Shown here: piece by piece, positions 2,166 to 41,154 of the stretch
Position numbering within the stretch: the stretch's first letter is position 1
Layout: each line of letters opens with the position of its first letter
Assembly (NCBI RefSeq): GCF_013122565.1
Contig: NZ_CP053258.1
Length of the DNA: 64,000 nt
Direction: 5' to 3' (one strand)
From: Escherichia coli
Lineage (GTDB): Bacteria; Pseudomonadota; Gammaproteobacteria; Enterobacterales; Enterobacteriaceae
Position numbers and translations under genes: made by a program
The notes under the pieces: generated by a model
Seen by the model: the letters and a program-made list of their open reading frames with translations, nothing else
Told to the model about the DNA's origin: nothing
The model's database searches: none

Positions 2166-2770
2166 TCACTGATGCCGTTTACGTAGGTTCTCAATTACCG
2201 TCGTTAAATCCAGCTCCTGATCCTGCAACAGCACCAGCAAGTGATACATCAAGTCGGACGCTTCGTTGGTCAGTTCAAAGCGGTCATGTACCGTCGCGGC
2301 CAGTGCGGTTTCCACCCCTTCTTCGCCCACTTTCTGCGCAATGCGTTTGGTGCCGCTGGCATACAGTTTGGCTGTGTAAGAGGTTTCCGGGTCGGCAGAT
2401 TTACGCTCGGCGAGCAGTTGTTCCAGTTGATACAGGAACAGCCATTGGTGAGCGGTGTCGCCGAAGCAGCTGCTGGTGCCTTTATGGCAGGTTGGTCCGA
2501 TAGGATTCGCCAGCACCAGTAGCGTGTCGTTGTCGCAGTCCGGCGCAATATTTACTACGTTGAGGAAATTGCCTGATGTTTCGCCTTTGGTCCACAGCCG
2601 CTGTTTAGTGCGCGAGAAGAAGGTGACTTTGCCGCTTTCGACGGTTTTGTCCAGAGCTTCCGGGTTCATATAGCCCAGCATTAGCACTTCGCCAGATACC
2701 GCGTGTTGCACAATCACCGGCATAAGTCCGTCGGTTTTTTCCCAGTCCAGTTCGCGACGTTGTTGTTCTG

Positions 2771-2777
<7 letters not shown>
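2166..2777 (-). CDS. hisI: bifunctional phosphoribosyl-AMP cyclohydrolase / phosphoribosyl-ATP pyrophosphatase
   Basis: 203 aa translation matches HisIE; last gene of the his operon; 7 bp overlap with hisF. Confidence 0.97.
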
Positions 2778-4855
<2,078 letters not shown>

Positions 4856-9199: not shown

Positions 9200-9245
9200 T
9201 TTGTTATTCCTCTTTAAACCTGTCTGAACCGTTATCAACCGCGCA

Positions 9246-9285
9246 ATAAAAAAGCCCCCGGAAGGTGATCTTCCGGGGGCTTTCT
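9246..9285 (-). terminator. his attenuator terminator hairpin
   Basis: GCCCCCGGAAG..CTTCCGGGGGC stem followed by a U-run on the minus-strand transcript, between hisL and hisG. Confidence 0.85.
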
Positions 9286-9344
9286 CATGCGTTCATGCAC
9301 CACTGGAAGATCTGAATGTCTTCCAGCACACATCGCCTGAAAGA

Positions 9345-9395
9345 CTAGTCAGGATGATGGTGATGATGGTGGTGTTTAAATTGAACGCGTGTCAT
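9345..9395 (-). CDS. hisL: his operon leader peptide (MTRVQFKHHHHHHHPD)
   Basis: Minus-strand ATG ACA CGC GTT CAA TTT AAA followed by seven consecutive His codons, CCT GAC TAG; read directly from the sequence. Confidence 0.97.
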   Translation of the reverse strand: MTRVQFKHHHHHHHPD

Positions 9396-9620
9396 AAAAG
9401 TCTCTGTGAATGTTTATTCAACTGATGTCTTTTAACCTAAACCACTTTCACGTTAGAAAGCAAGGGCTTTTTTATATATTTTATGGCGATGGATTTGTTT
9501 AATGAATGAGCGGGGAAAGGAGGGTGCCTGGAGTGACTACGTTAGAAAAGAAATCGTGAAAATATGTCTTTAAAACCCTCAAGAACATTGTGTTCTGTAA
9601 CTCAAGTGGGCTTTGTTCCT

Positions 9621-9719
9621 GCCGGATGCGGAGTGAATGCCTTATCTGGTCTACAAATGTTGCGTAAATTCAATATATTGATGTTTTTTGTAGGACTGAT
9701 AAGCGGAGCGCATCAGGCA
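9621..9719. repeat. REP/BIME element upstream of the his promoter
   Basis: GCCGGATGCGGAGTGAATGCCTTATCTGGTCTAC and inverted TGTAGGACTGATAAGCGGAGCGCATCAGGCA. Confidence 0.7.
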
Positions 9720-9822
9720 ATGGTATATTTGCTAACCGTTTCGATTTCATTCATAGAATGAATTGTCAGTTTTGATACGCTAGCGTAGCCTTATAGATCT
9801 AAGGTGTATCAGGAGATAACGG

Positions 9823-10647
9823 ATGAAAAAGGTCGCAATTGTCGGGTTAGGGTGGTTAGGCATGCCGCTGGCGATGTCACTTTCAGCGCGAGGCTGGCAA
9901 GTCACCGGGAGTAAAACCACACAAGATGGTGTCGAAGCGGCCCGAATGAGTGGCATTGATAGCTATCTGCTTCGCATGGAGCCTGAGTTAGTTTGCGATT
10001 CTGACGATCTGGATGCCCTGATGGATGCCGATGCGCTGGTCATTACGCTTCCGGCACGTCGTAGCGGCCCCGGCGATGAGTTCTATTTACAAGCGGTACA
10101 AGAGTTAGTGGATAGCGCGCTGGCTCATCGTATTCCCCGCATTATTTTCACCAGCTCAACATCTGTCTATGGCGATGCGCAAGGCACGGTGAAAGAAACC
10201 ACCCCGCGTAATCCGGTAACCAACAGTGGACGAGTATTAGAAGAACTCGAAGACTGGCTGCACAATTTACCCGGTACTTCGGTCGATATTCTGCGTCTTG
10301 CGGGGCTGGTCGGACCGGGACGTCATCCCGGACGCTTCTTTGCCGGAAAAACTGCGCCTGATGGTGAATATGGTGTTAATTTAGTCCATTTAGAAGATGT
10401 TATTGGCGCTATCACCCTGTTGTTACAGGCACCTAAAGGCGGACACATCTATAATATATGTGCGCCAGCTCACCCTGCGCGTAATGTTTTCTATCCGCAG
10501 ATGGCCCGTTTACTGGGGCTGGAACCTCCGCAGTTCCGAAATAGTCTGGACAGCGGAAAAGGTAAGATTATTGATGGCAGTCGGATTTGTAATGAACTGG
10601 GATTTGAATACCAGTATCCCGATCCGCTGGTAATGCCGCTGGAGTAA
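9823..10647 (+). CDS. yeeZ: NAD(P)-binding Rossmann-fold protein, epimerase/dehydratase-like
   Basis: 274 aa, N-terminal GxxGxxG (IVGLGWLG); matches YeeZ by sequence and by position. Confidence 0.9.
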   Translation: MKKVAIVGLGWLGMPLAMSLSARGWQVTGSKTTQDGVEAARMSGIDSYLLRMEPELVCDSDDLDALMDADALVITLPARRSGPGDEFYLQAVQELVDSALAHRIPRIIFTSSTSVYGDAQGTVKETTPRNPVTNSGRVLEELEDWLHNLPGTSVDILRLAGLVGPGRHPGRFFAGKTAPDGEYGVNLVHLEDVIGAITLLLQAPKGGHIYNICAPAHPARNVFYPQMARLLGLEPPQFRNSLDSGKGKIIDGSRICNELGFEYQYPDPLVMPLE

Positions 10648-11740: not shown

Positions 11741-11888
11741 GCTTCAAACCAATCATTCATACCAAGAGGCCGGGCTTCGTACCGGATAGATATTTACTAA
11801 AAATCGACAGTTGTTGTCGCTGAGGAATCCAAAAAAATGGGGCAATTTTTTGCTTACGCGACGGTTATCACCGTAAAGGAGAATGACC

Positions 11889-13247
11889 ATGTCGCATAAC
11901 GTTACTCCAAACACCTCTCGCGTGGAATTGCGTAAAACGCTTACGTTAGTTCCGGTTGTAATGATGGGTCTTGCCTATATGCAGCCGATGACGCTGTTTG
12001 ATACTTTTGGTATCGTTTCAGGCCTCACGGATGGTCATGTGCCGACAGCCTATGCGTTCGCATTGATTGCGATCCTGTTTACGGCTCTGAGCTACGGGAA
12101 GCTGGTTCGCCGCTATCCTTCTGCTGGCTCTGCATACACTTACGCCCAGAAATCCATTAGCCCGACTGTCGGCTTTATGGTGGGTTGGTCTTCTCTGCTC
12201 GACTATCTGTTCGCGCCGATGATCAACATTCTGCTGGCGAAAATCTATTTTGAAGCTCTGGTGCCTTCCATCCCATCGTGGATGTTTGTGGTGGCGCTGG
12301 TGGCCTTTATGACCGCCTTTAACCTGCGTAGTCTGAAATCCGTAGCGAACTTCAACACTGTAATCGTCGTGTTGCAGGTAGTGCTGATCGCGGTGATTCT
12401 GGGCATGGTTGTTTATGGCGTATTTGAAGGTGAAGGCGCTGGTACGCTGGCGAGCACTCGTCCGTTCTGGTCTGGCGATGCGCATGTTATCCCGATGATT
12501 ACCGGGGCGACAATCCTGTGCTTCTCCTTTACCGGCTTTGACGGCATCAGCAACCTGTCGGAAGAAACCAAAGATGCAGAGCGCGTGATCCCGCGTGCGA
12601 TTTTCCTGACCGCGCTGATTGGCGGCATGATCTTCATCTTTGCAACTTACTTCCTGCAGCTGTACTTCCCGGATATCTCTCGCTTTAAAGATCCGGATGC
12701 GTCACAGCCTGAAATCATGCTGTATGTTGCGGGTAAAGCGTTCCAGGTTGGCGCGCTGATCTTCTCCACCATTACCGTACTGGCGTCCGGTATGGCGGCG
12801 CACGCAGGCGTAGCGCGTCTGATGTACGTAATGGGTCGTGACGGCGTATTCCCGAAAAGCTTCTTCGGTTATGTACACCCGAAATGGCGTACTCCGGCGA
12901 TGAACATCATCCTGGTTGGCGCGATTGCCTTGCTGGCAATCAACTTCGACCTGGTAATGGCTACGGCGCTGATTAACTTTGGTGCGTTGGTGGCGTTCAC
13001 CTTCGTTAACCTGTCGGTCATCTCGCAGTTCTGGATCCGTGAGAAGCGTAATAAGACGCTGAAAGATCACTTCCAGTATCTGTTCCTGCCGATGTGTGGT
13101 GCGCTGACCGTTGGTGCGCTGTGGGTTAACCTGGAAGAAAGCTCAATGGTTCTGGGTCTGATCTGGGCTGCTATCGGTCTGATTTACCTGGCTTGCGTAA
13201 CCAAGAGTTTCCGTAACCCGGTTCCGCAGTACGAAGACGTAGCATAA
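11889..13247 (+). CDS. plaP: amino acid/polyamine permease (putrescine importer PlaP)
   Basis: APC-family permease, multiple transmembrane segments; start [16 protein letters not shown] with AAGGAG Shine-Dalgarno 8 nt upstream. Confidence 0.92.
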
Positions 13248-13285
13248 TCTTACAAGCCGGATGACATCATCATCCGGTAAATCTC

Positions 13286-13318
13286 AAAAAGCCGGAGTTT
13301 GTCGCTCCGGCTTTTTTC
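13286..13318. terminator. bidirectional terminator between convergent plaP and sbcB
   Basis: AAAAAGCCGGAG..CTCCGGCTTTTTT hairpin flanked by A/T runs on both sides. Confidence 0.75.
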
Positions 13319-13320
13319 TT

Positions 13321-14748
13321 TCAGACAATCTCTTCCGCGTACTGCCAAAGCGCTTTTAACAGCGCCACTTTTTCTTTATCGTCGGCATACTGCTGCGCCA
13401 GCATCTGAATCTCTTCTGCATAGCCTTGTAAAAACTCGGGTGTGAATACCTGGCGGCGGTGCTCCAGCCAACGTTGCTGCTCGGCATAATCCAGCGTCCC
13501 TGGGAAGTTGCGCGCCCGATAATTGAACAACAGCTTTTCAATTCGTTTATCAACAAAAGTGATATCCAGTGCCGGTAAATTACGCGGCTCGGTTTCCAGC
13601 ACAATTTTCATTGCTGCACGATCGGCGTCACTGAAAAAGCCGTTATAAAGCTGTGCATCCACGTTATCTGAAGGCGTAAACGGTTCGGCTTCCGCGAATA
13701 TCGCCACCACTTTTTCGCGCACTTGCGGATTTTCACGCAGAATTTTCAGGTTATCGAGGCAATGCTGACGATTAATTCCCAGTCGGTCGGCATCTTCCGG
13801 GCGTAGCGTATTCGCCTGGGCCAGCACCGGACATTTATTGATATGCACCAGCTTAACCGGAACGGCGGCGTTATCGCTAAGATCGGTTTTTGCGGTATAT
13901 AAACGCTCGCGCAATGTGTCGCTATCCAGTTCCAGTAATGGCGAAATGTCTCCTGCCAAATCCACCATAATTACGGCATTGCGATTTTCAGGATGCCACG
14001 CCAGCGGTGCCACCCAGCTGGTATTGCCGCGCCATGCCCCAAACATTCCGGAAACGTGCACCAGGGGTTTCATCTGCGGAACATCAATCAACGCCATCAG
14101 TTTGTGTTTATTACGATGGGTAAAGAGATAATCAAACAGACGTGGCTGACACGTTTTTACCAGTTTCGCCATCGCAATAGTAGCGTACACGTCAGCCATC
14201 GCATCGTGGGCATTGCTATGTTCAATACCATTCGCTTTGGTTAAATGCTCAAGGCGAAAGCTCGGTAGACCGTCATCATTTTCAGGCCAATTTATTCCTT
14301 CCGGGCGCAGGGCATAACAGGCACGCATAACATCCAGTAAATCCCAGCGCGAGTTATCATGCTGCCAGCTCCAGGCGTAAGGATCGTAGAAATTACGATA
14401 AAAAATGTTGCGTGTGACTTCGTCGTCGAAACGCACATTGTTGTAGCCCAGAATACAGGTCTTCGGTACGGTAAAAAGCGAGTGAATACGAGCGGCAAAT
14501 GCGGCTTCGTTTTCTCCTTTCGCCCGAGCTTCCTGCGGGGTAATACCGGTAATTAATACTGCTCCAGGCTGGGGTAAATAGTCATCCGCGGGCTTGCAGT
14601 AAAAGACTTCGGGTTCGCCGATGATATTGAATTCGCTATCGGTGCGAATGGCTGCGAACTGTGCAGGGCGATCTAACGCGGGGTGCGTGCCAAAGGTTTC
14701 GTAATCGTGAAACAAAAAGGTAGATTGTTGCTTACCGTCATTCATCAT
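13321..14748 (-). CDS. sbcB: exodeoxyribonuclease I
   Basis: Translation MMNDGKQQSTFLFHDYETFGTHPALDRPAQFAAIRTD... (475 aa) matches exonuclease I, DEDDh exonuclease domain. Confidence 0.97.
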   Translation of the reverse strand: MMNDGKQQSTFLFHDYETFGTHPALDRPAQFAAIRTDSEFNIIGEPEVFYCKPADDYLPQPGAVLITGITPQEARAKGENEAAFAARIHSLFTVPKTCILGYNNVRFDDEVTRNIFYRNFYDPYAWSWQHDNSRWDLLDVMRACYALRPEGINWPENDDGLPSFRLEHLTKANGIEHSNAHDAMADVYATIAMAKLVKTCQPRLFDYLFTHRNKHKLMALIDVPQMKPLVHVSGMFGAWRGNTSWVAPLAWHPENRNAVIMVDLAGDISPLLELDSDTLRERLYTAKTDLSDNAAVPVKLVHINKCPVLAQANTLRPEDADRLGINRQHCLDNLKILRENPQVREKVVAIFAEAEPFTPSDNVDAQLYNGFFSDADRAAMKIVLETEPRNLPALDITFVDKRIEKLLFNYRARNFPGTLDYAEQQRWLEHRRQVFTPEFLQGYAEEIQMLAQQYADDKEKVALLKALWQYAEEIV

Positions 14749-18487: not shown

Positions 18488-18513
18488 AATGAGGGTTGCC
18501 CGGCAACCCTCAT
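18488..18513. terminator. bidirectional terminator between convergent yeeX and pduV
   Basis: AATGAGGGTTGCC-GGCAACCCTCATT perfect inverted repeat. Confidence 0.75.
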
Positions 18514-18573
18514 TGCTCATTGATTCTTTTCTGTGTATCACAGTCATCATTCCCATCTGATAACCTATCGAAA

Positions 18574-19017
18574 TTAGCGACAGACATCTTCTGTATGCAG
18601 CAAGGAAAAAAGTTCTGTAACTCCATTGTTATTAACCGCACTGGTTACTAACACGTTCTGCGCTCCAGCTTCCCGTAACCAACATTTCACCAAAGATATT
18701 TGTTCCATGCTGGCTAAATCTGCTTTGGTTACTACTCCAATGACCGGGCGATTCATTGACGAGGTAAAGCCTGGCGAAAAAGGTGACCACGGTGCGTCCG
18801 CATTAAGCACCAGCGCGATAATGTCTGCTTCGCAGGCACTGACCAACAGTGCACTGTAGAGGCTGCGGTTTTCGAGGTATTCGCCTGGTGTATCAATGGT
18901 GGTCGGGGACCAGACGATTGCCTGCGTTTTCTGATAATGAATATTTTCGCCACGCAGACATTGCGTGAGTGACGTTTTTCCGCACTGGCTGGGGCCGATG
19001 AGCATCATACGTTGCAT
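18574..19017 (-). CDS. pduV: EutP/PduV-family small GTPase (microcompartment-associated)
   Basis: 147 aa with P-loop [10 protein letters not shown] and DTPGE motif; final gene of the pdu operon. Confidence 0.9.
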
Positions 19018-19021
19018 AATG

Positions 19022-19372
19022 TCAGGTCCGCGTAATGGGGCAGGCGGTAAAGCGCATCATTTCACCCAGCGTACGGGTAACCTGGCTAAGTGCATATTCA
19101 ATTGCAGAAACATCACCAGTCAGCACTACGGCACCGGTAAAACGATCAAGAAAACCGATCTCTACAGCGCCTGATTTTGTGGCGATATCGCATGCGATGA
19201 TAGATGCTTCGCTGGGGGTAATCGTCAGAATGCCAATAGCAGAAACGGTGTCTGGTAAACCCAATTTCTTAAACAGATCCTTCCCTGGATTGGCGATGAC
19301 ATGTGCCAGCGTGACCTGCTTACCAGGGACATATTCCTGAATCATCCGTTCAGTTGTGTGCTGAGTTGTCAT
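19022..19372 (-). CDS. pduU: microcompartment shell protein PduU (permuted BMC domain)
   Basis: Translation ...[34 protein letters not shown]... matches PduU/EutS type; start taken at the internal Met to give about 116 aa. Confidence 0.88.
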
Positions 19373-19926
19373 TATCCCTCCACCATCTGACGCCACATGG
19401 CTTCATGTGGGCGGGCAATCACCGACCGATAGACCAACAAACCTTTTTCCCCCGCACGCTCGCTGGCGACAGAGACCGCGTTATTAACATCTGAAATATC
19501 GCCAGCAACCACCATGTAGCATTTACCGCCAATGCCAAAAGCCATATGCACGCGAACGAGAATGACATTCGCAGCTTTGACTGCACAATCGGCAGCGTCA
19601 ATGCAGGCGGCGACACTCCAGGTTTCGACTACGCCGACAGCCCGGTGCTGTTCAGCATGGTTAAGTCCGCTGATTGCAGAAAGGATGCTGGGATGAATAT
19701 TCGGCAGGACAAGACTGTCGACCAGCATTTCGCCAGCAAGGGAAGCGCCGCTGTTGATGGCCTGTTGCACCGCGCCCACATCGCCACCGAGCATCAGTAG
19801 AAATTTTCCGGGGCATAGCGTTTTGCTGACCAGTAACTCAACGTTGGCGCTTTTCAGCATGGCATCGCCGGTTTCCATCCCTTTCGCGATACTGCTAAGT
19901 TCTAAAATACCTACCGCTTTCGACAT
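19372..19926 (-). CDS. pduT: microcompartment shell protein PduT (tandem BMC domains, Fe-S)
   Basis: 184 aa, two BMC domains, conserved Cys in LCPGKF. Confidence 0.92.
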
Positions 19927-19928
19927 GG

Positions 19929-21272
19929 TTAACCTCTCACAAGCGTAATCGCGTTTTCTGTCACATCGCTGACCATGCCATCAATGCTGGCATGAATGGG
20001 GGCACCTAATGTGCCGTGTGGAATTTGACCTACACATTGTCCATGAACGACGCGATCGCCTTTTTGTACACACGCAATTGCGCTGGCACCGATGTGTTGG
20101 CGTAACAATAACGTCACTTTTTCGGGCTGAGGCACCTGTTCAGACAATGGCGCATCCTGATACCACGGGGTTAAGCCCAGTCTGGTTACCAGCCGTTTTA
20201 CGGGAATCAGTCGATAATTTGCCATTGGATCTGCAGGATTTAAGGCACCTTCGTAGCGGAGATTTTGTGCGCGTAATTCCTGCTTAAGCAGGCGGTTTAT
20301 GCGCATTGGTGAAATTCCTACCGGACAGGCGATGCTGGCGCAGACGTTGCACTCCGAACAGGTGAGCGCCGTCAGTAACAGTTGTGGCGTAGCGAGCTGT
20401 TGGTAGTTAACCGCACGTACTAATAAATGGGGTGCCAGTTCGTGACCGATTAAATGACGAGGGCAGAGATCGGTACACAAGCGGCATTGCTCACAAACAG
20501 TTTTCGCGACGGCAAGTACGCTGCGGTCATTCTGCATTCGACGTTGGATCAGTGAATGAGAGTTGGGTAAAACCAGCAAGCCGCCAGTGGTTTTGCTGAC
20601 TGGTGTGTCGAGCGATGTGATCAAACTTCCCATCGTCGGCCCGCCATTGATAAAACCAGGAGCATCTACTGTTGCGCCGCCCGCCAGCGCCAGGACTTCA
20701 CGTAAAGACATGCCGATGGGGACGGTTACCGTTATTGGTTTCGCCACTGCACCATTAACGGTGAGTGTGCGGCGCGTCACTGGATACTGTTGCTCGACGG
20801 CTCTGGCAATATTAAGTACGGTTTGAACATTATTGACCACCACACCGACGCTAACGGGTAATGCAGCGGGTGGAACGCGGCGACCAGTTGCCATCCAGAT
20901 GGTCAGCACTTCGTCTCCTGCGGGGTAAACGTCGGGCAAAATATGCAGGCGGATATCCGGTGGTAACAGTGGTGTGAGTGCGTTTATTGCCAGTTGATAT
21001 TTCTCTTTCAGCGCGATGATTCCGCTACTGGCCCCGGTGGCTTTCATCGCATAGTGAACACCGCGAAGCAGGCGGCTGGCTTGCTGCGCCATTAACTGTT
21101 GATCCACTTTCAACATGGGTTCGCATTCCGCCGCATTCACCAGGAAAGTGTCAACACGCGCTTGTAGCTTAATATGGGTTGGAAAACCTGCGCCGCCAGC
21201 ACCCACGACACCTGCTGCCTGTACTCGCTCGCGGATAGTCTGGTCGTCGCAGGAGGTTAATCCGACGTTCAT
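19929..21272 (-). CDS. pduS: cobalamin reductase PduS (RnfC-like Fe-S flavoprotein)
   Basis: 447 aa; two 4Fe-4S motifs [12 protein letters not shown] and [28 protein letters not shown]-binding region. Confidence 0.93.
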
Positions 21273-22381
21273 AACAATTCCTCGAGCAGTTCTGCAATCG
21301 CGGAGGCATCAGCCGCATGCGGGTTGGTACGCAACGTTGCATCCGCCAGCGCCGCCTGAACCATATCTGGTATGCGTATTGACCATTCTGCTTTTTTTTC
21401 TTTCAGCGCATTGGCAAGAGTCGGCAGCGTACAGGTTGTTTTAAGCTGTTCAATATGTTGAATAAGTGCATTCAGGCTGGCGGTGTCATTGGCGTTGTCC
21501 GGGCATAAATGGCACGTTTTCGCCAGCCGGGCGTAGCGTTTGGCTGCGCGCGGATCGCCAGCATTAAAGCGGATAACCGCCGTGAGCAGGAGCGCATTCG
21601 CCAGGCCGTGCGGCAGATGAAACTGTCCGCCGAGTTGATGAGCAATTGCATGGTTTAAACCGAGTCCGGCCTGGCTAAAGGCCACTCCTGCAAGCGTCGA
21701 AGCATTATGCATTTTGCCACGGGTGGCAAGACAATCGCCTTTCTTCACTGCAGTGGGCAGGTATTGAAAAACAATTTGCACGGCTTTTTCGACCAGTGCA
21801 TCCGTGAAGTCGCTGGCGCGGGGAGAAACATAAGCTTCAAGCGCATGGGTTAAAACATCCATCCCGGTATTGGCCGTTATCGCCGGTGGCACGCTGACGA
21901 CCAGAGATGGATCAAGGATCGCGATATCCGGATAAAGTGCATTATCGAAAAGGGGATATTTAATCCCTTTCTCAGGATCGCTGATGACACAAGCACTGGT
22001 CACTTCGGAACCGGTACCGCTGGTGGTAGGAATGGCTACGCAGGTTTCAATTTCAATGCCACACTGGCGACCGAACCAGACAATCGCTTTTGCGGCGTCC
22101 AGGGCAGAACCGCCGCCAAAACCGATAACCACATCCGGGCGTAAAGTCTGCATTTGCGCAATGCCTTTCACCACGATCTGGATAGTTGGGTCAGGCGTTA
22201 TTTCGCTAAAAATACTGAGACGATTACTGTCGGGCAGCGCCTGATGCAACGTGTCAATGAGTGGTGAGCGTGCCAGAAAGGCGTCGCAAATAATCCAGAT
22301 GTGTTTATGAGAGAAACGGCTAAGTACCTTGAGACTTCCCGGTCCGCTGTATAAACGCGTCTGCAGTGAAAAAGTATTCAT
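21269..22381 (-). CDS. pduQ: 1-propanol dehydrogenase (iron-containing alcohol dehydrogenase)
   Basis: 370 aa Fe-ADH family (GGGSALDAAK motif). Confidence 0.93.
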   Translation of the reverse strand: MNTFSLQTRLYSGPGSLKVLSRFSHKHIWIICDAFLARSPLIDTLHQALPDSNRLSIFSEITPDPTIQIVVKGIAQMQTLRPDVVIGFGGGSALDAAKAIVWFGRQCGIEIETCVAIPTTSGTGSEVTSACVISDPEKGIKYPLFDNALYPDIAILDPSLVVSVPPAITANTGMDVLTHALEAYVSPRASDFTDALVEKAVQIVFQYLPTAVKKGDCLATRGKMHNASTLAGVAFSQAGLGLNHAIAHQLGGQFHLPHGLANALLLTAVIRFNAGDPRAAKRYARLAKTCHLCPDNANDTASLNALIQHIEQLKTTCTLPTLANALKEKKAEWSIRIPDMVQAALADATLRTNPHAADASAIAELLEELL

Positions 22382-22391
22382 TTCCGTTTCT

Positions 22392-23777
22392 CTAGCGAAT
22401 TGAAAAGCCGCTGGTTAACACGCAGCGTCGTGAGCGGGCAAAAGTCCGTGCTGACGTTGTCCCTTCTCCGGTCGGTGTTGCAATGGTAAAGGTCGTAAAG
22501 CCTTCGCCGCCGACGCCAATACCCGCCCAGGAGGGGCCGTTTTTGACAAAGATTGAGGTTTGCATAACGCGCGCAGCAAGGTTGAGCCGTGAGACGTTCT
22601 GCGAGTGCATAATTGCCGTGTGGTGCAAGCCGTCTTCCACTTTCAACGCCAGAGTGAGAGCGCTGTCAAAATCGTTGACCTTCACAATGGGCAGCATTGG
22701 CATCAGTTGTTCACAAGTAACCCAACTATCATCGGCGTCAACAACAGCAATCAGTAGGCGCGGCGCTTTTGCGGGCAAAGGGAGGCCCGCTGCTCCCAGC
22801 AAGGCTGATGGGCTTTTCCCAACCAGTTTTTTGTTGGTGCTACCGTCTGGCAGGCAAATTGCACGCAATTTCTCCGTTTGTTCACGGTTAAGAAGAAGTG
22901 CGCCAAAGCTTTGCATCTGCTGAATTAAATAATCTGCCACTGATGCCACGACAATCAGGCTTTTTTCAGCGATACACGGCAGGTTGTAATCAAAAGAAGC
23001 GCCGTTGATGATGTCCTCGGCGGCTTTCACAATATCAGCCGTTTCATCGACGATACACGGAGGGTTACCCGCTCCGGCACCAATCACTTTCTTGCCACTT
23101 TTCATTCCCATGGTGACGATCCCCGGACCGCCGGTAATCGCCAGAACGCTGATTTTAGGGTGCGCCATCATCTGTTCGGTGGCAGCAAAGGTCGGTTCAG
23201 ATACGGTAACGATCAGGTTATGAATGCCACTACAGCGAAACGCGATGTCTTCGATTGTGGTAATCAGTTTTAACGAAACGTATTTGGCTCCCGGGTGTGG
23301 ACTGAAGTAGACGCTATTACCTGCTGCCAGCATGCTGATGCTGTTGTTAATGATGGTTTCCGTGGGGTTGGTGCTTGGCGTGACCGAGCCAATAACCCCA
23401 AACGGAGAGTACTCAAACAAAACCATGCCACCATCACCGGTTAGTGCTGTGGTGGTTAAATCTTCAATTCCTGGCGTGTTATCAAGTGCCGCTTTGTTTT
23501 TTAGGTACTTATCTTCTTTATTTCCCATCCCCGTTTCTTTGGCGCTTTCTTCTGCCAGTTCGGTAAGGCGGGGCATTAATTCTTCGCGAATGGCGCTGAT
23601 AATGGCGCTACGGGTTTTAAGCGGGCACTGTTGAAAGCGTAAAAAGGCCTGGTGTGCTGCGCAGACCGCTTCATCGACAGTCTGGAAAATAGCGTTTCTT
23701 TGCGTTCGTGGTGTAGCGGGGACAAGTTGCTCACGCAGAATAATGCGGATCAGTGTTTCTAATTCAGAGTTATTCAT
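22392..23777 (-). CDS. pduP: CoA-acylating propionaldehyde dehydrogenase
   Basis: 461 aa aldehyde dehydrogenase family with N-terminal encapsulation-like helix (MNNSELETLIRIILREQL). Confidence 0.93.
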   Translation of the reverse strand: MNNSELETLIRIILREQLVPATPRTQRNAIFQTVDEAVCAAHQAFLRFQQCPLKTRSAIISAIREELMPRLTELAEESAKETGMGNKEDKYLKNKAALDNTPGIEDLTTTALTGDGGMVLFEYSPFGVIGSVTPSTNPTETIINNSISMLAAGNSVYFSPHPGAKYVSLKLITTIEDIAFRCSGIHNLIVTVSEPTFAATEQMMAHPKISVLAITGGPGIVTMGMKSGKKVIGAGAGNPPCIVDETADIVKAAEDIINGASFDYNLPCIAEKSLIVVASVADYLIQQMQSFGALLLNREQTEKLRAICLPDGSTNKKLVGKSPSALLGAAGLPLPAKAPRLLIAVVDADDSWVTCEQLMPMLPIVKVNDFDSALTLALKVEDGLHHTAIMHSQNVSRLNLAARVMQTSIFVKNGPSWAGIGVGGEGFTTFTIATPTGEGTTSARTFARSRRCVLTSGFSIR

Positions 23778-24781
23778 TGGTTTACTCCCACGTTAATTGC
23801 CGCCATTGCGCTTTGGGCAATATCCATGTCTTGTTCAACGCTACCGCCGCTGATGCCAAGCCCGCCAAGCAATTTTCCGTCACGCCAGAGGGGGAAGCCG
23901 CCACCAAAAGTGACGACTTTTCCTTGCATATGGCTTTCGAGCCCGTAAAGCGGCGCGCCGGGTTGCACGGTATCAGCAAGCTTGTGGGTTGCCGTTTTCA
24001 TCGCCACGGCGGTCCAGGCTTTTTTCGGTGCCAGTTCACTGCTGACCAACAGGGCATCAGGCATCCGCCAGGTAACACTTTCTGTTCCGTTGGCATCAAC
24101 AATGCTGATGACAACGGGAATATGCAGTTCATCTGCGCGCATTGCCGCACTACGAATGAGTTGGTGAAGATCCTGAAAAGTGAGCGGCATTGTGCGTTCC
24201 TTCATTGCTGGTGTGTGGTTGGCTTCGTGATAACGTTTTGTGATTTCCTGAATTATCAGATTTTGATGAGCAACGTTGTCTTCCACGCGGGCGAGGGCAT
24301 ACAGGCAATCGGAAAGTCGGTTGATATAGTGCAGCAAAACATTCCGGACGGTGGTTTCCGTTGTCAGTTCAACCAGCCGTCTTTCAGCCCGTCGAGCCAC
24401 CGTGCGGGCGAAATGCATGCGGCTTGCGGCTTCACATCGACCAGGCAGAATGAAGCTGTGAACTGGGGGGACGGCGTTCATTGCACTATCGATCGCGTTT
24501 TCCAGCACGGCAATTTCTTCCGTACCGACGTAACGCTGCTGCGCTGACGGCTGTTCGCTTTCACTGGCGAGTTCGGCGCTAAACCAAAATATCTGTTGTT
24601 GAATGGCTTCCAGTAAGATGCGATGGCTTTCAATGGAGGTGGCGCAATAACACAGACTAAGTGTCGCGTTCAGTTCATCCAGCGTGCCATAGGTTTCGAC
24701 ACGTAGATGAGTTTTGCTTACGCGCTGTCCGGTAAATAAAGACGTACTTCCTGAATCACCTGTTCGGGTATAAATTGCCAT
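23774..24781 (-). CDS. pduO: ATP:cob(I)alamin adenosyltransferase PduO (plus C-terminal DUF336 domain)
   Basis: 335 aa; N-terminal MAIYTRTGDSGSTSLFTGQRVSK is the PduO-type adenosyltransferase signature. Confidence 0.93.
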   Translation of the reverse strand: MAIYTRTGDSGSTSLFTGQRVSKTHLRVETYGTLDELNATLSLCYCATSIESHRILLEAIQQQIFWFSAELASESEQPSAQQRYVGTEEIAVLENAIDSAMNAVPPVHSFILPGRCEAASRMHFARTVARRAERRLVELTTETTVRNVLLHYINRLSDCLYALARVEDNVAHQNLIIQEITKRYHEANHTPAMKERTMPLTFQDLHQLIRSAAMRADELHIPVVISIVDANGTESVTWRMPDALLVSSELAPKKAWTAVAMKTATHKLADTVQPGAPLYGLESHMQGKVVTFGGGFPLWRDGKLLGGLGISGGSVEQDMDIAQSAMAAINVGVNQ

Positions 24782-24792
24782 CTTTCAGCTCC

Positions 24793-25068
24793 TTAGCGCG
24801 AAAGCGTATCGACAATGCCGACCACTGCCAGGTCGATGGCCTCGTTAGGGCCGGAAAACACATGTCTGGCGCTGGAACCACTGCTGAGGAGTACCAACTC
24901 ACCAACGCCTGCGCCGACTGAATCAACGGCAACTTCGTCGCCGGTTAAAGGCGTGAGAGGCAGTTCGCCGTCAGCACTGACCCGGCGAACCAGCAGTAGT
25001 TTTTTCCCGATCAGAGAAGGTGATTTTTGCGTGGATACTACCGCGCCAGTGACTCGAGCCAGATGCAT
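24793..25068 (-). CDS. pduN: microcompartment vertex (pentamer) protein PduN
   Basis: 91 aa EutN/CcmL family ([15 protein letters not shown]...). Confidence 0.9.
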
Positions 25069-25071
25069 AGG

Positions 25072-25563
25072 TTACTCCTGCCTGATTAACTGAATATTTC
25101 GGGTAATTGCCGCTTCACGAGCCAGTGCGGTCACACAACATTTCCGCTGTAACACCAGTATTCCAGAGCTTAACTGCGCAATATCGGCATAACTTAAAAG
25201 TCGATCACGATGAAGGTAGATCGGTTGCCCTTGCTCGTCGCACCAGCTTAGCGGTAGACGGGCGAGAGTCTTCAATTCAATGGCGTTCAGGAAATGATGC
25301 TGCAACGACAATTGAATGTGCATTCCCCAGGCTAACGCTTCGTGTATCTGGATTGCTGCTCGATCTGACGTTTCGTTCTCCGCAAGTTGTCGCAGCAGCG
25401 GCAGATCGACATATCGGATTTGTAATGACGCATACTGATGAACGCTCTCTTGAACGCTGGCGTCTCGCAGTTGAAAAACAGTCAGCACGAGTGTTTTTCC
25501 CGCACGTTGTTTAAGGCGAAAAACCACTTCGTCAACAATACGTTGCATCAGCATGTTATTCAT
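25072..25563 (-). CDS. pduM: microcompartment structural protein PduM
   Basis: 163 aa; position between pduL and pduN; PduM-like. Confidence 0.85.
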   Translation of the reverse strand: MNNMLMQRIVDEVVFRLKQRAGKTLVLTVFQLRDASVQESVHQYASLQIRYVDLPLLRQLAENETSDRAAIQIHEALAWGMHIQLSLQHHFLNAIELKTLARLPLSWCDEQGQPIYLHRDRLLSYADIAQLSSGILVLQRKCCVTALAREAAITRNIQLIRQE

Positions 25564-26192
25564 GGCACTGACACCAGTGTGGCAAAAACGTCAGGGCTAT
25601 CAGCGCCTGCGGCGTTGGCCTCATCGGTATCAATATGCATTTCAAGACGCATATCCGGAGAGACGCGAACAGCGACGTTTTCGAATATCAGTCGTCGCTC
25701 ATCACCTTCAATGGAAACCGCCACTTTATCGCCATGCGTAACGCCATAAATCAGGGCATCCAGCGGAGACATATGAATATGCCGTTGCGCGACAATAACG
25801 CCAGATGTGATCTCCAGTTCCGCAAATGGGCTTATCAAACGAATCCCCGGAGTGCCGCTGAGATCGCCTGACATGCGTAGCGGGGCGGTGATCCCTAACG
25901 TTCTGGCGTCCGTACGGGAAATTTCCACCTGGCTTGCATTGCGTAGCGGCCCCAACAAGCGAACGTTGTGCAATTTACCTTTTGGTCCCTCCAACGTAAC
26001 AACCTGTTCAGCCGCGAATTGGCCAGGCTGCATTAACGGCTTTTTCTCGCTAATCGGTTGTTCAGGAAAAAGACGCAAATAATCCGCTGTTGAAAGATGA
26101 ATATGACGACTGGAAACACCCAGAGGGATAGGGCGCTCGCGCATCTCATCCAGAATCTGACTCACTGTTTCCTGCAAGGTTTGTTTATCCAC
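25560..26192 (-). CDS. pduL: phosphate propanoyltransferase PduL
   Basis: 210 aa PduL/EutD-type phosphotransacylase. Confidence 0.9.
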   Translation of the reverse strand: MDKQTLQETVSQILDEMRERPIPLGVSSRHIHLSTADYLRLFPEQPISEKKPLMQPGQFAAEQVVTLEGPKGKLHNVRLLGPLRNASQVEISRTDARTLGITAPLRMSGDLSGTPGIRLISPFAELEITSGVIVAQRHIHMSPLDALIYGVTHGDKVAVSIEGDERRLIFENVAVRVSPDMRLEMHIDTDEANAAGADSPDVFATLVSVP

Positions 26193-26194
26193 TG

Positions 26195-26617
26195 CTACTC
26201 CCCTCGCTTATTGGCGTGCAGGCAAAGTGAGCGGGGCTCGCCTTTTTGCCGCTGACATGCCGGGTCAAGACACAAATTACAACTGATAATCTCTGAGGTG
26301 ACGGTTGTTGCTGGTGTTTCGCTTGTTTCAACCGTCACAGTCAATGCTTCAGTTGTGTGGGGCAGGATGCCCTCTCCCGGGCGGGCAATCACTTTGTGTG
26401 CGACAAGGCCATTTCGCTGTCCGGCGAAACTGGCTCCCGTCGCGATCGCCGCATTAACCGAGGCGACGTCACCGTTGATTTTGATGAGCGTCCAGCCTGA
26501 GCCATTGGTCTTCTCAAGGCCAACCAGCGTGATGGACGCGGCTTTTGCCATAGCGTCTGCGCAACTGATGGCGAGTGCCAGACCACTGACTTCAAGTAAT
26601 CCCAGTGATTGCTTCAC
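26195..26617 (-). CDS. pduK: microcompartment shell protein PduK (BMC domain plus Cys-rich C-terminal tail)
   Basis: N-terminal BMC domain (LGLLEVSGLALAISCADAMAKAA) and C-terminal tail with C-x2-C-x4-C...C. Confidence 0.88.
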   Translation of the reverse strand: MKQSLGLLEVSGLALAISCADAMAKAASITLVGLEKTNGSGWTLIKINGDVASVNAAIATGASFAGQRNGLVAHKVIARPGEGILPHTTEALTVTVETSETPATTVTSEIISCNLCLDPACQRQKGEPRSLCLHANKRGE

Positions 26618-26640
26618 GCTGTGCTCCTTAGCAAATGGGG

Positions 26641-26916
26641 TTATGCCGATTTAGGTAAAATAGCCTCAACATCACTGTGTGGACGCGGGATGACATGGCA
26701 GGATTTCACTTCGCCAACGGCGCTTGCCGCAGCGCTACCCGCATCAACGGCGGCCTTTACTGCGCCAACATCACCGCGGACCATAACCGTAATCAGACCC
26801 GAACCAATCTTTTCATAGCCAACCAGCTGCACGTTGGCGGATTTAACCATGGCATCTGCAGCTTCAATTGCGCCAACTAACCCTTTTGTTTCAACCAGTC
26901 CTAGTGCGTTGTTCAT
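26641..26916 (-). CDS. pduJ: microcompartment shell protein PduJ (BMC hexamer)
   Basis: 91 aa, close paralogue of PduA ([29 protein letters not shown]...). Confidence 0.93.
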
Positions 26917-26935
26917 ACAGCGTTTCTCCTGTGGA

Positions 26936-27286
26936 TTATGAGTGGCATTCCCTGAAGGGAATGCCTTTTACCAGGCGGGCAGCGTTATTGCCGATGCTGC
27001 GCCGGGCATGGTTATCTTGTTGATACATCAGCGTAAACAGTGGCGCTGATGCCGGTAAGTTTTTGTAATGCACAATCAGCTTTTCCCGGTCGCAGGCTAT
27101 GCCAACCAACAGGGGGGACTGACGAGCAGCCTGCCAGGCGCTATCGATGACTTCACCTGACGGGATATGTTGAATGCGAAAGGGGATGCCTTCCTCTTCA
27201 ATGCCAAGAAGCACCTCATTCCATGTACTGATACAGTCACCTATTTCCGTAACGACAATAGCGGGCGTATGTTCTTTACTTTCCAT
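26936..27286 (-). CDS. pduH: diol dehydratase reactivase small subunit
   Basis: 116 aa; follows pduG; overlapping start/stop. Confidence 0.9.
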
Positions 27287-29108
27287 GAGCCAACTCCCTG
27301 TGCCAGGAAATCAGTAGCCCGGTAGCTACCGCATTGCGCGGGCCTTCACTACCACGGATATTCCCCCGTCCGGCGACCAATCGATAATGCGCCAATGCAT
27401 CGGTGACTAACTGCGGGACTTCGAAATCCAGGGAAGAACCGCCCACCAGAACGACGAACGGAATATCGCGAATATTTCCGCCTGGACTTACCTGACGTAG
27501 CGCGCGCAGGGCATTGGTTACGAAGACGCGCTCTTTCGCACTGCGGCGAACAGCGCGTACTTTTTCCAGTGTTAAATCGCCGGGAATAGGCACCAGTTCG
27601 TCAGGTTTCACCACACAAACGCGGGCAAATACATGAGGGGACAGCGGAGTAGGGAAGAACTGAACGCTGCCGTCTTCATGGCGTAAATGGAACAGGCTTT
27701 CTACTTTTGCCAACGGGTATTTTTTGATTTCTTCTGCCAGATAACGATCATTTAAGCCCAGTTCCCTGGCAATAATCATCGTCACCATGTCGCCCGCTCC
27801 CGCAAGGTGAGTAGCTATCATTTCCCCTTTCTGATTGATGATGGAGGCATCGGTAGAGCCTGCACCTAAGTCCAGAATAGCCAGTGGACGTGTGGTTCCA
27901 GGGGTAGTCAAGGCCCCCTGAATGGCGGCTTCTGCTTCTGCGCCTCCGACCTGAACATCAACATGCAGTTTTTGCTTAATTTCACTGGCGATCATCGCCA
28001 TTTGCAGACGGTCGGATTTCACCATAGAGGCAATACCCACAGCCTGTTCCAGTGAAAATTCACCTGCCAGACCACCGGTTACGCTGACGGGGACAGAGGT
28101 ATCTATCGCCAGCAAATCCTGAATAAAAATTTCGTGGCTGGGTTTATTGGTCAGCTCCGCCATGGTCTGGCGAACATGTTCCAGCATACCGCCGATGTTG
28201 GTGCCTGGTTCTCCCGTCACGTTTTCCAGTTTTGGGCACTCACCGACCGCTTTCATAATGGCATCGGCACCAGCAGCTACATCAACGCGCGTTGTGCGCC
28301 CGGCAGAAAGCAGTTCGATATTTCCGGCGGGTATCGAACGGGCTTTAACGTCGCCAGAAGGCGTTTTCACTACCACTGCTGAACGGTTGCCGATTAGCGC
28401 CCGCGCGACAGGAACAATATTTTTAGTCTCTTCAGCATTGAGGGCGAAAACGGTGGCAATCCCATACGGGTTAGACAGGGTTTCGATAACTTTCCCGGGA
28501 ACGGCAACTTCAATTGCAGCCAGCATGCCGAGCGGAATACGATCGATGTAGAGGACTTCATCGACAATAGGTAGAGGAATTTCCAGACGGTTATTGACCA
28601 GTACGCCATCGTCGCGTTGCAGAATAACGCCAGTTAGCTGATATCCGGCGCGTACGGAGGCGTTCATCATCGTCGCGATATCGGCAAAATCAAATGCCGA
28701 TGACACCACCAGGATGTAAGGTGTGTCCGCCGGGCGTGTTAATAACTCTTGCGGAGTGATGGTGAGCCCTACGCCCAGCCCCACTCCGCCCGGAGTTTTC
28801 GGGTTGTGACCGATCATGGTTGATTCGGTGATGATAGTTTCAGTGATGGTTTCCATCGCCACATCACCAATGACCGGAGTTGCTTCGTTGATACGAATAA
28901 GCGAAATATCGCTAACATTGATGCCGACTTTTTTCGTTGCCTGTGCGAGCGCCTTCTGAATACCATGGACGTTACGCAACGTACCTTTGATTCCGGTGGT
29001 TTCCGCCAGGGCGCTACTCACGAACGATAACTCTCCAGATGCACTGAGCGTTGCCAGCGCTACCTCTGTCGATGAGTTGCCGATATCAATGCCTGCTATA
29101 TATCGCAT
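27276..29108 (-). CDS. pduG: diol dehydratase reactivase large subunit
   Basis: 610 aa, ATPase of the DhaF/PduG family (MRYIAGIDIGNSSTEVALA). Confidence 0.93.
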   Translation of the reverse strand: MRYIAGIDIGNSSTEVALATLSASGELSFVSSALAETTGIKGTLRNVHGIQKALAQATKKVGINVSDISLIRINEATPVIGDVAMETITETIITESTMIGHNPKTPGGVGLGVGLTITPQELLTRPADTPYILVVSSAFDFADIATMMNASVRAGYQLTGVILQRDDGVLVNNRLEIPLPIVDEVLYIDRIPLGMLAAIEVAVPGKVIETLSNPYGIATVFALNAEETKNIVPVARALIGNRSAVVVKTPSGDVKARSIPAGNIELLSAGRTTRVDVAAGADAIMKAVGECPKLENVTGEPGTNIGGMLEHVRQTMAELTNKPSHEIFIQDLLAIDTSVPVSVTGGLAGEFSLEQAVGIASMVKSDRLQMAMIASEIKQKLHVDVQVGGAEAEAAIQGALTTPGTTRPLAILDLGAGSTDASIINQKGEMIATHLAGAGDMVTMIIARELGLNDRYLAEEIKKYPLAKVESLFHLRHEDGSVQFFPTPLSPHVFARVCVVKPDELVPIPGDLTLEKVRAVRRSAKERVFVTNALRALRQVSPGGNIRDIPFVVLVGGSSLDFEVPQLVTDALAHYRLVAGRGNIRGSEGPRNAVATGLLISWHRELAHGK

Positions 29109-29117
29109 AGTTCGTCC

Positions 29118-29636
29118 TTAATCGTCGCCTTTCAGTTTTTTGCGCTCGACATAAAGTTCCGCAGCTTCACGGACAAATGCAGCACAAATTTGGGCCTGAT
29201 AACGCCGTTCAAGATCGTCAGCAATGGCAATAAGTTCTTGCTTAGTTGAACGATAAGGGCGTAACGCATTGTAGATTTCGAGGATGCGATCATCCGGTAC
29301 TGAGGTAAGCTCAGCGGCGCGTTCAAAATTCATCGCCAGACGATCGCGACCAGCATCTCTGGCAATCGCGGCCTGAATACGCAATGTTTCAGGGGTAATG
29401 CGCATATCCTGGGCGGTGACGTTATCGCTTAGCACATTTTCCAGAGTGAAATCGTCGAGCGTTTTATTGGTTGCTGTTTTAACCCATTCCGGATGTTTAT
29501 TTGCCAGCGGATAATCCGTCACTTTGGCGCTCTGTATTGACGCGCTGGGGACCGCAGAAACAGGAGCTGCATCCTGTAAACTGTTCATGCGGTTCAACAC
29601 GTCCCTGACCATCGACTCAATTGCATCGGTATTCAT
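29118..29636 (-). CDS. pduE: propanediol dehydratase small (gamma) subunit
   Basis: 172 aa; order C-D-E conserved. Confidence 0.93.
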   Translation of the reverse strand: MNTDAIESMVRDVLNRMNSLQDAAPVSAVPSASIQSAKVTDYPLANKHPEWVKTATNKTLDDFTLENVLSDNVTAQDMRITPETLRIQAAIARDAGRDRLAMNFERAAELTSVPDDRILEIYNALRPYRSTKQELIAIADDLERRYQAQICAAFVREAAELYVERKKLKGDD

Positions 29637-29650
29637 GAAGGTTTCCTTTG

Positions 29651-30319
29651 TTAAAACGTCACGCGCAGTTCTTGCGGTTTTTTGCCAGTGACCACGTACT
29701 TCGTCTCTTTAATATGCAAAATGGCAGATTTGGCTTGGTATTTCGGCCGCGCCATTTGATCGTTGAGGGTCGGCACTGGTTGTGGAGACTCACGCTTCGC
29801 ATAACGCGCGGCGTTTTTGCCAATCTGACGATAAGTATCCAGCGTCAACAAAGGCGCTTGTGGGAAAAGTTCCAGGTTAGACAAGGGAGGAAGCCCCTGC
29901 TGGTGGATAACCGTTGTGCCTTTCGACTGAATACCGATAGCAATACCTGAACCACTAAGACGATCGCCTTCGACTGCTACGAATGCGACATCGGACGATT
30001 TAAAGCAGCGAATCACACGGGCTTTAATACCTTCTTCTTCGATACCGGCAATTACTTCGCGCAAGATGTTTTTATGCGGAATACCGATGATATTGACGGT
30101 TTGCGCCAGGCCGAACGCCGGTCCTACAGCAATAATGACTTCATCTTGCTGAGTGCCTTGTTGGGCTTCGCCAATTTCGGTCAGAAAATTTCCGGTATCT
30201 GGCGCGAAAGAGGCAGTTGCAGAGACAGGTGCGCGAAATGAAACGGACTTGTCGCTGGTTTGCATTTCTGCCAGCACGTCTTCGATAATCTGACGCAGTA
30301 ATTTTTCGTTAATTTCCAT
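29651..30319 (-). CDS. pduD: propanediol dehydratase medium (beta) subunit
   Basis: 222 aa; N-terminal encapsulation helix ([19 protein letters not shown]). Confidence 0.93.
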
Positions 30320-30328
30320 TTCTCACCC

Positions 30329-31993
30329 TTAGTCAATTTCGTTGGGATCAAGTGCACCGGGAATATTTTTGATCTCTTCCCAGCGTTCCCCTTGCAGGCG
30401 GTAACCTGTAGCCGGTCCGGCGTAATCATTGACGTCATTGACCGCAGAGAGCACTTGTCCGTCATCGACGATGATGGCTGAGGTATGGAGATAATCGCCG
30501 GTCAGTTTTGCTTTTTGCATGTTGAGCATGTCCTGGGCGACATCGGTAAAACCGCCTTGCGCCAGGGCTTTCACCACTTCCAGGCTGTTACGGTTTTTAT
30601 TGATAATTTCCTGGGCGAACTTAATGTCTTCTACGATGTTGCGCTCTGGCATATCTTTCGAACCGTGGGCATAGGTCGCCGCTTCGACTTCTTCATCGGT
30701 AATAGGCGGTAGCCCCATACCGGCAAAGACAGCCTGTAAAGCGCGAGCGGCTTTATTGCGGATAGCGATAACATCTTCTTCGCGTACTGGTCGCAGCCCG
30801 CCATCAACCTTCAGGTCACGCTGAATGACGTTGTAATCATCGAAGTCTTCAGCATCTTCGTTTGAACCAGCAAACATGTTGTCGTAGTTCGGCACAGCGG
30901 AAAAACCGGAAGAGATAAAGTCGGTACCAGGCAGAAACTGCATCAGGAAACGTGCGGTACGGCGCATATCCGAGTGGGTAAAGGTCTGGTCATTACTGGA
31001 GGCGCATTCCAGATCCAGCGATGAGCAAATTAAGTTTTCCGCTAATACTGCGCGGATGCCTGATGGCACAGCTGATGGAACACCGATGCAGCTTACCGAA
31101 CCATTCTGCAGGCCCTGAACGCCTGCGGCTTTGGTGATGTAAATGCAACGAGCCTCGAGATAAAGCATTGATTTGCCTTCCGCGTAACCCATCTGTACTT
31201 CAGAGCCGGAGCCGGAAGTAAAGCGCATTTTTAAGCCGCGAGACGCATAGGATGACGCGAGAAATCCTTTTGACCACGGGGTGTCATCGCCATCGGTGAA
31301 AACAGGTTCTGTACCATAGACAGAAATTGTTTCGGCGTAACAGGTGTGGCCTAACATACCGAGTTTCAGTTCGGTGGCTTCTTCCAGTGAACACTGGGTC
31401 AAGACGCCCGGACGTCCCACCTGTGAGCCGACCAGCAGGGCGATGGCGTTGAACGGGGCATAGCGAGCAACGGCAACGGTGGTTTCCTGTTCATCAAACC
31501 CGCGCCATGCGCCTTCAGCTGCGTCGGCGGCAATTTGTACCGGGTTATCTTTGACGTTGGTGACGTGAGCCTGTTGTGATGGTGTTCGACGGGCGCGCAT
31601 TTTCTGCATCGCCATCATCATCTCTACCACGTTCATCTGCGAAACAACTTCGACGATTTTTGCAGGCGTCATTGCTGTGGTAAGGGGAACGATATCGCTA
31701 CGTTTGACATTTGGATCGCACAACATATTGGCAAGTTTTACCGAATCCATCGCGATGACTTCTTCTGCGCGCGCGAGATTGATGCCGTAGCGGGCGATAA
31801 AGTGGTCGATCAGGTCAAACTGGCTGGCGGGTTTTCCATCCAGTTCGGTAACGACGCTGTTAACAATTTTGATTGACGGTTTAGGATCGTTCGGGCTTTC
31901 CATCGCAATGAAGCCTTCTTCAATCCACTCTTTAACGAAACCGTCCTGGTTGACCGGGCGTTTTGCCAGTGCTTCAAATCTTTTCGATCTCAT
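30329..31993 (-). CDS. pduC: B12-dependent propanediol dehydratase large (alpha) subunit
   Basis: 554 aa; diol/glycerol dehydratase large subunit family. Confidence 0.95.
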   Translation of the reverse strand: MRSKRFEALAKRPVNQDGFVKEWIEEGFIAMESPNDPKPSIKIVNSVVTELDGKPASQFDLIDHFIARYGINLARAEEVIAMDSVKLANMLCDPNVKRSDIVPLTTAMTPAKIVEVVSQMNVVEMMMAMQKMRARRTPSQQAHVTNVKDNPVQIAADAAEGAWRGFDEQETTVAVARYAPFNAIALLVGSQVGRPGVLTQCSLEEATELKLGMLGHTCYAETISVYGTEPVFTDGDDTPWSKGFLASSYASRGLKMRFTSGSGSEVQMGYAEGKSMLYLEARCIYITKAAGVQGLQNGSVSCIGVPSAVPSGIRAVLAENLICSSLDLECASSNDQTFTHSDMRRTARFLMQFLPGTDFISSGFSAVPNYDNMFAGSNEDAEDFDDYNVIQRDLKVDGGLRPVREEDVIAIRNKAARALQAVFAGMGLPPITDEEVEAATYAHGSKDMPERNIVEDIKFAQEIINKNRNSLEVVKALAQGGFTDVAQDMLNMQKAKLTGDYLHTSAIIVDDGQVLSAVNDVNDYAGPATGYRLQGERWEEIKNIPGALDPNEID

Positions 31994-32011
31994 AAATCTG
32001 CCTCAGAGAAT

Positions 32012-32824
32012 TCAGATGTAGGAAGGGCGATCGTTTTTCGGTGTATCGCCAAGAGTCGAAAGCACGGTTTTACCGATTTCGCGTGCGGAGATGACCGCCT
32101 GGCGGACTGCGCCGGAGTCACCCGAGATAATCAGAATGACTTCATTGCTGTAGCTGGTGCCTTGAGCGGGGGAGCTGTATGCCACAACATCCACATTGGC
32201 GGACTTCAGCGCGGTGTCGGCCATCAGAACACCCACAGCAGCCGGAGCGCCGACAATAACGCCGCAAGCCCGTCCCAATGGTGCACCAAACGCTTTTTCC
32301 AGTGCATAGCTGGCGCGGGCGGTATATTGCAGCTCAAGATGTCCGGCTTCGTTGGCATAGACATCGCCAAAGGTCCGATCGAGTTCTTTCAGGGCGACTT
32401 CAATACCGCGTTTCACGTCGGAAACATCGTTGCCACCTAAGAGGATCAATGAGCCATGCCCGGCACCGCCTTTAGTATCGCGAGGAAGTTCAATGCTAAT
32501 AACTTCAGTGTTGGTGGCTTTTACCGCTTCATCAGCGGCCATAATGTGTGGCCCTGCGCCAATACGCGCACCCAGAATGCCAATGGAACGATAGCGTTTT
32601 TCAAGTTTCATCGCGTCCAACAGGGCGCTATCAACGTTCGCAATGACCAGACCTACAGTGTCGCCAATAGCGGTGCCAACAAATTCTGTTAACGTGCAGC
32701 TTTTTTCTGCCATAGCCGTCTCTCGTATTTGATGAGTGGTTTTCGGGAGAACCTCATGCTCTGGCGTCGCTACGCGAGCGATGACCTGCGCCATGATCTG
32801 TTCGACCAGTTCATTGCTGCTCAT
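32012..32824 (-). CDS. pduB: microcompartment shell protein PduB (tandem BMC)
   Basis: 270 aa; tandem BMC domains. Confidence 0.93.
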
Positions 32825-41103: not shown

Positions 41104-41154
41104 TAGCCATATCAGTGAAGAAAGGGCAGTACCGCTGATTCTGCCCTTTTAATT

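Follow-up and report, generated by a model that had tools for sequence, protein, structure and literature searches.

The plaP and sbcB genes converge directly in the window, by which we mean the whole 64,000-nucleotide stretch of Escherichia coli DNA analysed here, and the tsuA and tsuB genes (yeeE and yeeD) that separate them in K-12 are absent. Comparison across genomes indicates that the window carries an old, inherited, and common presence/absence polymorphism, with a junction orthologous to that of sister Escherichia species. The 1.45-kb tsuA-tsuB cassette, comprising a promoter, two genes, and its own terminator, is an alternative allele, placed after the plaP terminator and ahead of the sbcB stop codon. 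For the window itself, this amounts to routine pan-genome variation.

The window covers the his–sbcB–pdu–cob region of E. coli in the orientation opposite to the K-12 map. Genes were identified through NCBIfam and through the RefSeq annotation of near-identical genomes; plaP, yoeI, yeeY, yeeZ, dacD, and sbmC are annotated in strain ET201. The genes run in the order hisG (on the minus strand, with its end near 9238), hisL, yeeZ, yeeY, yoeI, plaP, sbcB (minus strand), dacD, sbmC, and yeeA. On the plus strand, plaP (yeeF), encoding a putrescine/proton symporter, occupies 11889–13247 within an open reading frame of 11883–13247, its start being placed according to the ET201 and K-12 annotation, and its product is 100% identical to proteins at Escherichia loci. 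The start of plaP is overlapped by yoeI, a small membrane-protein reading frame on the same strand (11837–11899), which was placed according to the collinear genome of ET201, as annotated in RefSeq, with an offset of +10299. On the minus strand, sbcB encodes exodeoxyribonuclease I (NCBIfam NF008746, 813.8 bits) and occupies 13321–14748, with its start placed as in ET201; the mechanically called reading frame reaches 14796. The open reading frame list puts the plaP stop codon (TAA) at 13245–13247 and the sbcB stop codon (TGA) at 13323–13321, so that the convergent spacer between them (13248–13320) measures exactly 73 bp. An earlier note on this DNA, made from the sequence alone, had described the two genes as directly convergent and 73 bp apart, and the reading-frame ends at 13247 and 13321 bear this out.

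The same note had reported one terminator hairpin in the spacer, whereas folding gives two, at 13256–13278 and 13286–13316. Hairpin 1, GCCGGATGA-catca-TCATCCGGT, is a small palindrome of nine pairs with a loop of five. It is kept at the tsuAB-less Escherichia loci examined, with one compensatory change (A-U to G-C) in strain E69, and is missing from tsuAB-positive E. coli. It is reminiscent of REP elements: its GCCGGATG...CATCCGG stem resembles REP stems, and Enterobacter loci carry full REPs at the equivalent position. Hairpin 2, AAAAA-GCCGGAG-loop-CTCCGGC-TTTTTT, has a GC core at 13291–13311 preceded by five A and followed by six T, with a run of five T on the minus strand. Each strand therefore offers a GC-rich stem-loop with a U tract, the hallmark of an intrinsic terminator, and the element folds on both. 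The spacer as a whole folds at -34 kcal/mol on the plus strand (z = -8.3, with 0 of 200 shuffled sequences folding as well) and at -31.9 kcal/mol on the minus strand (z = -6.4).

A scan with a simple terminator consensus flagged none of the spacer hairpins, hairpin 2 included, probably because the T tract it requires is taken up in pairing between the A and T arms. A search of positions 12900–13700 against Rfam returned no RNA family, the sole match (IS009, E = 0.22) being at chance level. In most enterobacterial loci examined, whether or not they have tsuAB, plaP is followed by the CCGGAG...CTCCGG element with its T-run. The plaP terminator is common to tsuAB-positive and tsuAB-less alleles, as are, in several genera, the next 10–20 bases. 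On the basis of its sequence, its folding, and its conservation after plaP, hairpin 2 is most likely a two-way terminator that ends both the plaP and the sbcB transcripts. Where tsuAB is absent, the two convergent genes have no strong stem-loop with U tracts between them other than this conserved plaP terminator.

In K-12 MG1655, the annotated order is plaP-tsuA-tsuB followed by convergent sbcB, with the flanks in the same orientation; the gene order given in the earlier note is thus correct. In a tsuAB-positive strain the spacer is 1520 bp long. It begins with the plaP terminator and an AT-rich promoter region, continues with tsuA and tsuB, and has a second hairpin close to the sbcB stop codon. 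Neither tblastn with TsuA and TsuB nor blastn with the whole 1520-bp K-12-type spacer found any trace of the system in the 64-kb window, the best E-values (2.7, 0.52, and 0.023) being at chance level, and the absence of yeeE and yeeD that had been claimed for this DNA stands. The window likewise has no gene for a YeeE-family membrane protein followed by a TusA-like gene, the arrangement by which a TsuA/TsuB system is recognized. What it does have are all the marks of the tsuAB-less haplotype: a short spacer, homology of that spacer to others of its kind, and no tsuA or tsuB coding remnants anywhere in the 64 kb. As a separate observation on the alternative allele, an inverted repeat upstream of tsuA, AATAACC-N-GGTTATT, is near-identical in E. 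coli and Citrobacter (loci L001, at 3030–3070, L029, and L032) and is not found in the window; it may be a regulator binding site.

The tsuAB-less state is frequent among E. coli. DNA of tsuAB is present in 4203 of 5426 complete genomes and missing from 1223 (22.5%). A query across the direct junction is covered in one piece, at a threshold of at least 80% of its length, in 782 genomes; a query joining the spacer to the left end of the insertion sequence IS200C is covered in 432; and the junction query is unmatched in nine. The three counts add up exactly (782 + 432 + 9 = 1223 = 5426 - 4203). Every tsuAB-less genome therefore has the direct junction, its IS200C derivative, or no junction match, and no room is left for genomes of the junction type that keep tsuAB elsewhere, the finding that the earlier note had named as capable of overturning its interpretation.

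The direct junction is 100% identical among CFT073, UTI89, 536, Nissle 1917, LF82, NRG 857C, UM146, ABU 83972, IHE3034, SE15, and ATCC 25922, and strain 042 has the same direct junction; these are strains of phylogroups B2 and D. The subtype in the window is rare. The closest genome is ET201, with 99.4% identity across the junction and no more than 97.8% over 37.8 kb of collinear sequence, while junctions of the B2 type are about 94% identical. The spacer is collinear with those of ET201, MS20655, PU-1, and M11957 and with the left side of that of S21EC. In the interrupted derivatives, IS200C lies at one fixed point, directly behind the terminator T-run and ahead of the sbcB stop codon (2691–3403 of the S21EC locus, L003, corresponding to 13318–13320 of the window), and its insertion in 432 genomes is a candidate lineage marker. 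The plaP-sbcB junction could serve as a simple lineage marker that distinguishes genomes with tsuAB, genomes with the direct junction, and genomes in which IS200C interrupts it.

Other parts of the window also differ in gene content from reference genomes. Between hisL and yeeZ (9238–9823), the yefM-yoeB toxin-antitoxin pair found there in K-12 is absent, and two REP-like palindromes (about 9622–9656 and 9690–9720) stand in its place. A full propanediol-utilization (pdu) microcompartment operon with pduF and pocR, presumably not present in K-12, lies at about 18500–35500, flanked by tmaR and cobU, and has the same arrangement in the collinear genome of ET201. After it come a cobalamin riboswitch and cobUST. 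A 9.5-kb segment (39940–49415) between ldtA and a tRNA-Asn gene (49466–49541) is missing from ET201. It encodes two galactitol-type PTS sets, an RpiB-like isomerase, an Rpe-like epimerase, an SDR dehydrogenase, and two sugar-operon repressors (SorC/DeoR-like and DeoR/AgaR-type), and looks like a sugar-utilization islet at the tRNA-Asn site.

Outside E. coli, a PlaP scan of species-representative genomes yielded 80 kept loci out of 417, among which E. fergusonii, E. marmotae, and E. ruysiae do not occur by name. In E. albertii, E. whittamii, and E69, plaP and sbcB are directly joined by a spacer of 73–79 bp that aligns with that of the window column for column and contains both hairpins. Over 13 kb, strain E69, labelled E. 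coli, shows only 93% identity to the window, and on this basis it probably belongs to a cryptic clade. Because the spacer and both hairpins align in all three of these lineages, the haplotype is older than E. coli, and was inherited by this strain rather than made in it. The earlier note had offered ancestral absence or a precise deletion as explanations of the clean junction. The former fits these data; the latter, if it is taken to start from a K-12-like allele, does not, for reasons given below.

It seems probable that the tsuAB-less junction is the ancestral Escherichia arrangement and that the tsuAB allele was acquired or retained separately. The three sister lineages sampled and the B2 and D strains are all without tsuAB. 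On this view, the cassette would have entered other E. coli lineages, as opposed to having been lost at an early date. A recent donor of the E. coli cassette was sought among the 80 of 417 enterobacterial loci, and none exceeded 79.5% nucleotide identity.

Ancient loss is a possible, though doubtful, alternative to ancestral absence. It supposes that tsuAB was present at this site ancestrally in Escherichia and much of the Enterobacteriaceae, that one old deletion or replacement gave rise to the 73-bp null allele, that this allele passed by descent or by recombination among Escherichia lineages, and that the K-12 type kept the cassette. In its favor, tsuAB occupies the identical plaP-sbcB site in 22 of the 80 kept loci, representing at least eight genera that include Citrobacter, Kluyvera, Pseudocitrobacter, Leclercia, Siccibacter, and Superficieibacter. 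The nucleotide identity of tsuAB to E. coli at these loci (74–79.5%) is about that of the flanking core genes sbcB (75–81%) and yeeY (75–79%), and its GC and GC3 contents match those of neighboring genes. This pattern resembles what long vertical residence would leave behind; it argues for ancient loss and against a gain of tsuAB. Also compatible with ancient loss are the plaP terminator common to both allele types, extending in several genera into the bases that follow it, and the occurrence of internal deletions such as that of strain HH45. Set against these points, all three non-coli Escherichia lineages sampled are tsuAB-less with the same spacer, as are the classic B2 strains and 042, which branch early in E. 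coli. In addition, the two E. coli alleles are unalignable between the plaP stop codon and the terminator, so their split is far older than the species.

A broader reading, which we consider rather improbable, is that the plaP-sbcB junction is a variable slot throughout the family and that tsuAB is a long-lived trans-species presence/absence polymorphism. Both alleles would then be older than Escherichia, and the on/off state would recur in Citrobacter and other genera. The supply of thiosulfate in the habitat might be the selecting factor, in which case the near-fixed absence in B2 would be adaptive and not neutral.

Within Citrobacter, tsuAB-positive and tsuAB-less genomes share the same terminator loop, a sign that the cassette has been switched on or off independently from genus to genus. 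Some enterobacteria have other genes in the slot (cargo loci L065, L067, L052, L044, and L015). In Klebsiella and Raoultella it contains a gene for a 700-residue EF-G paralogue together with an ArsR-like gene, in Pluralibacter a gene for an Rpn/YhgA-like protein, and in one further genome a gene for a 517-residue sulfatase-like protein. The identity of PlaP to that of E. coli is bimodal within genera (loci L007–L086): it is 97% in Enterobacter cloacae DSM 26481 versus 88% in M-7, and 99% in Citrobacter sp. NCU1 versus 88% in C. freundii M-21. This hints that plaP alleles have been exchanged between genera.

A recent precise deletion of tsuAB from a K-12-like allele in the lineage of this strain is effectively excluded. 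A simple deletion would leave a spacer made only of sequence from the tsuAB-positive spacer, and this is not what is found: the two spacers have only the CCGGAG/CTCCGG terminator stem in common. The sequence from the plaP stop codon to the terminator, the terminator loop, and the sbcB stop codon (TGA here, TAG in tsuAB-positive E. coli) all differ between the alleles, and hairpin 1 and its surroundings do not exist in the tsuAB-positive allele. A true recent deletion, that of HH45, still has the initial 111 bp of tsuA together with the 3' part of tsuB (locus L089, 3501–4353), and the window has no such fragments. The one point that would favor recent deletion is that the flanks of the window are slightly closer to tsuAB-positive strains (about 98.4–98.6%) than to tsuAB-less strains of the B2 type (97.3–98.0%). 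Against this stands the occurrence of the same spacer in 782 genomes and three sister lineages. With only the terminator stem in common with the K-12 type, and with its recurrence in sister species, the spacer is best regarded as an old inherited haplotype and not as the product of a precise deletion.

The coding flanks of the two alleles are about 98–99% identical right up to both stop codons, and raised divergence in plaP or sbcB beside the break, as would mark an imported segment, was not seen: there are four and two mismatches in the first 100 bp on the two sides. Among the 4203 tsuAB-positive genomes, there are five in which less than 80% of the cassette is covered. A divergent tsuAB match in HH45 was considered as a foreign allele and rejected, as it represents the internal deletion. 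Lastly, an assembly or collapse artefact that dropped 1.45 kb can be given practically no credence, since nothing was found in its favor, the identical junction occurs in hundreds of independently finished genomes, and the site has no flanking repeats able to cause a collapse.

The CysPUWA transporter takes up sulfate and thiosulfate. The absence of tsuAB would be expected to cost only the secondary TsuA/TsuB thiosulfate route, and its functional cost should be small. YeeE and YeeD have been found to be both needed for growth on thiosulfate as the sole sulfur source in a delta-cysPUWA background, the only one tested (Ikei et al. 2024, PMC11073785). As tsuAB is missing from 22.5% of finished genomes, standard uropathogenic and probiotic B2 strains among them, it is an accessory and not a core component of E. 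coli. Conclusions drawn in K-12 on the secondary thiosulfate route are accordingly not transferable to strains that lack it.

The absence of tsuAB is an ordinary difference between strains that has already been reported and is not new. In regions flanking the O157-antigen cluster, three strains were described without yeeD and yeeE, an IS200-like element was placed between sbcB and yeeF in one strain, and Sakai was without yoeB-yefM between yeeZ and hisL (Iguchi et al. 2011, PMC3158064). Each of these three features recurs in the window or its close relatives. This was the only relevant paper found in the literature on yeeE and phylogroup. The tsuAB-less state can also be read directly from the annotation of standard B2 genomes in public databases.

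In comparison with these previously described loci, the O157-antigen strains are like the window in that yeeD and yeeE are missing between yeeF and sbcB and yefM-yoeB is missing between yeeZ and hisL; they are strains other than that of the window, and the likeness is one of gene absence, the paper (PMC3158064) containing no analysis of the junction sequence. K-12 MG1655 agrees with the window in its flanking genes and their orientation, with about 98–99% identity up to the stop codons, and has a plaP terminator with the CCGGAG/CTCCGG stem. It differs in its 1520-bp spacer, where tsuA with its promoter region, tsuB, and a second terminator are found, in its lack of hairpin 1, and in its sbcB stop codon, TAG. 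The sister lineages E. albertii, E. whittamii, and E69 share an orthologous spacer of 73–79 bp with both hairpins and no tsuAB; E69 and E. albertii are 90–93% identical to the window over a 13-kb stretch and E. whittamii 91–94% in two shorter stretches, and the terminator loop of E. albertii is longer. The B2 junctions of CFT073, UTI89, 536, Nissle 1917, and LF82 are like that of the window in their direct convergence, 73-bp spacer, same two hairpins, lack of tsuA and tsuB, and TGA stop codon of sbcB. They are about 94% identical to it overall, and are distinguished by three substitutions in the spacer (at G13256, C13268, and C13318) and one in sbcB just past its stop codon (at A13327).
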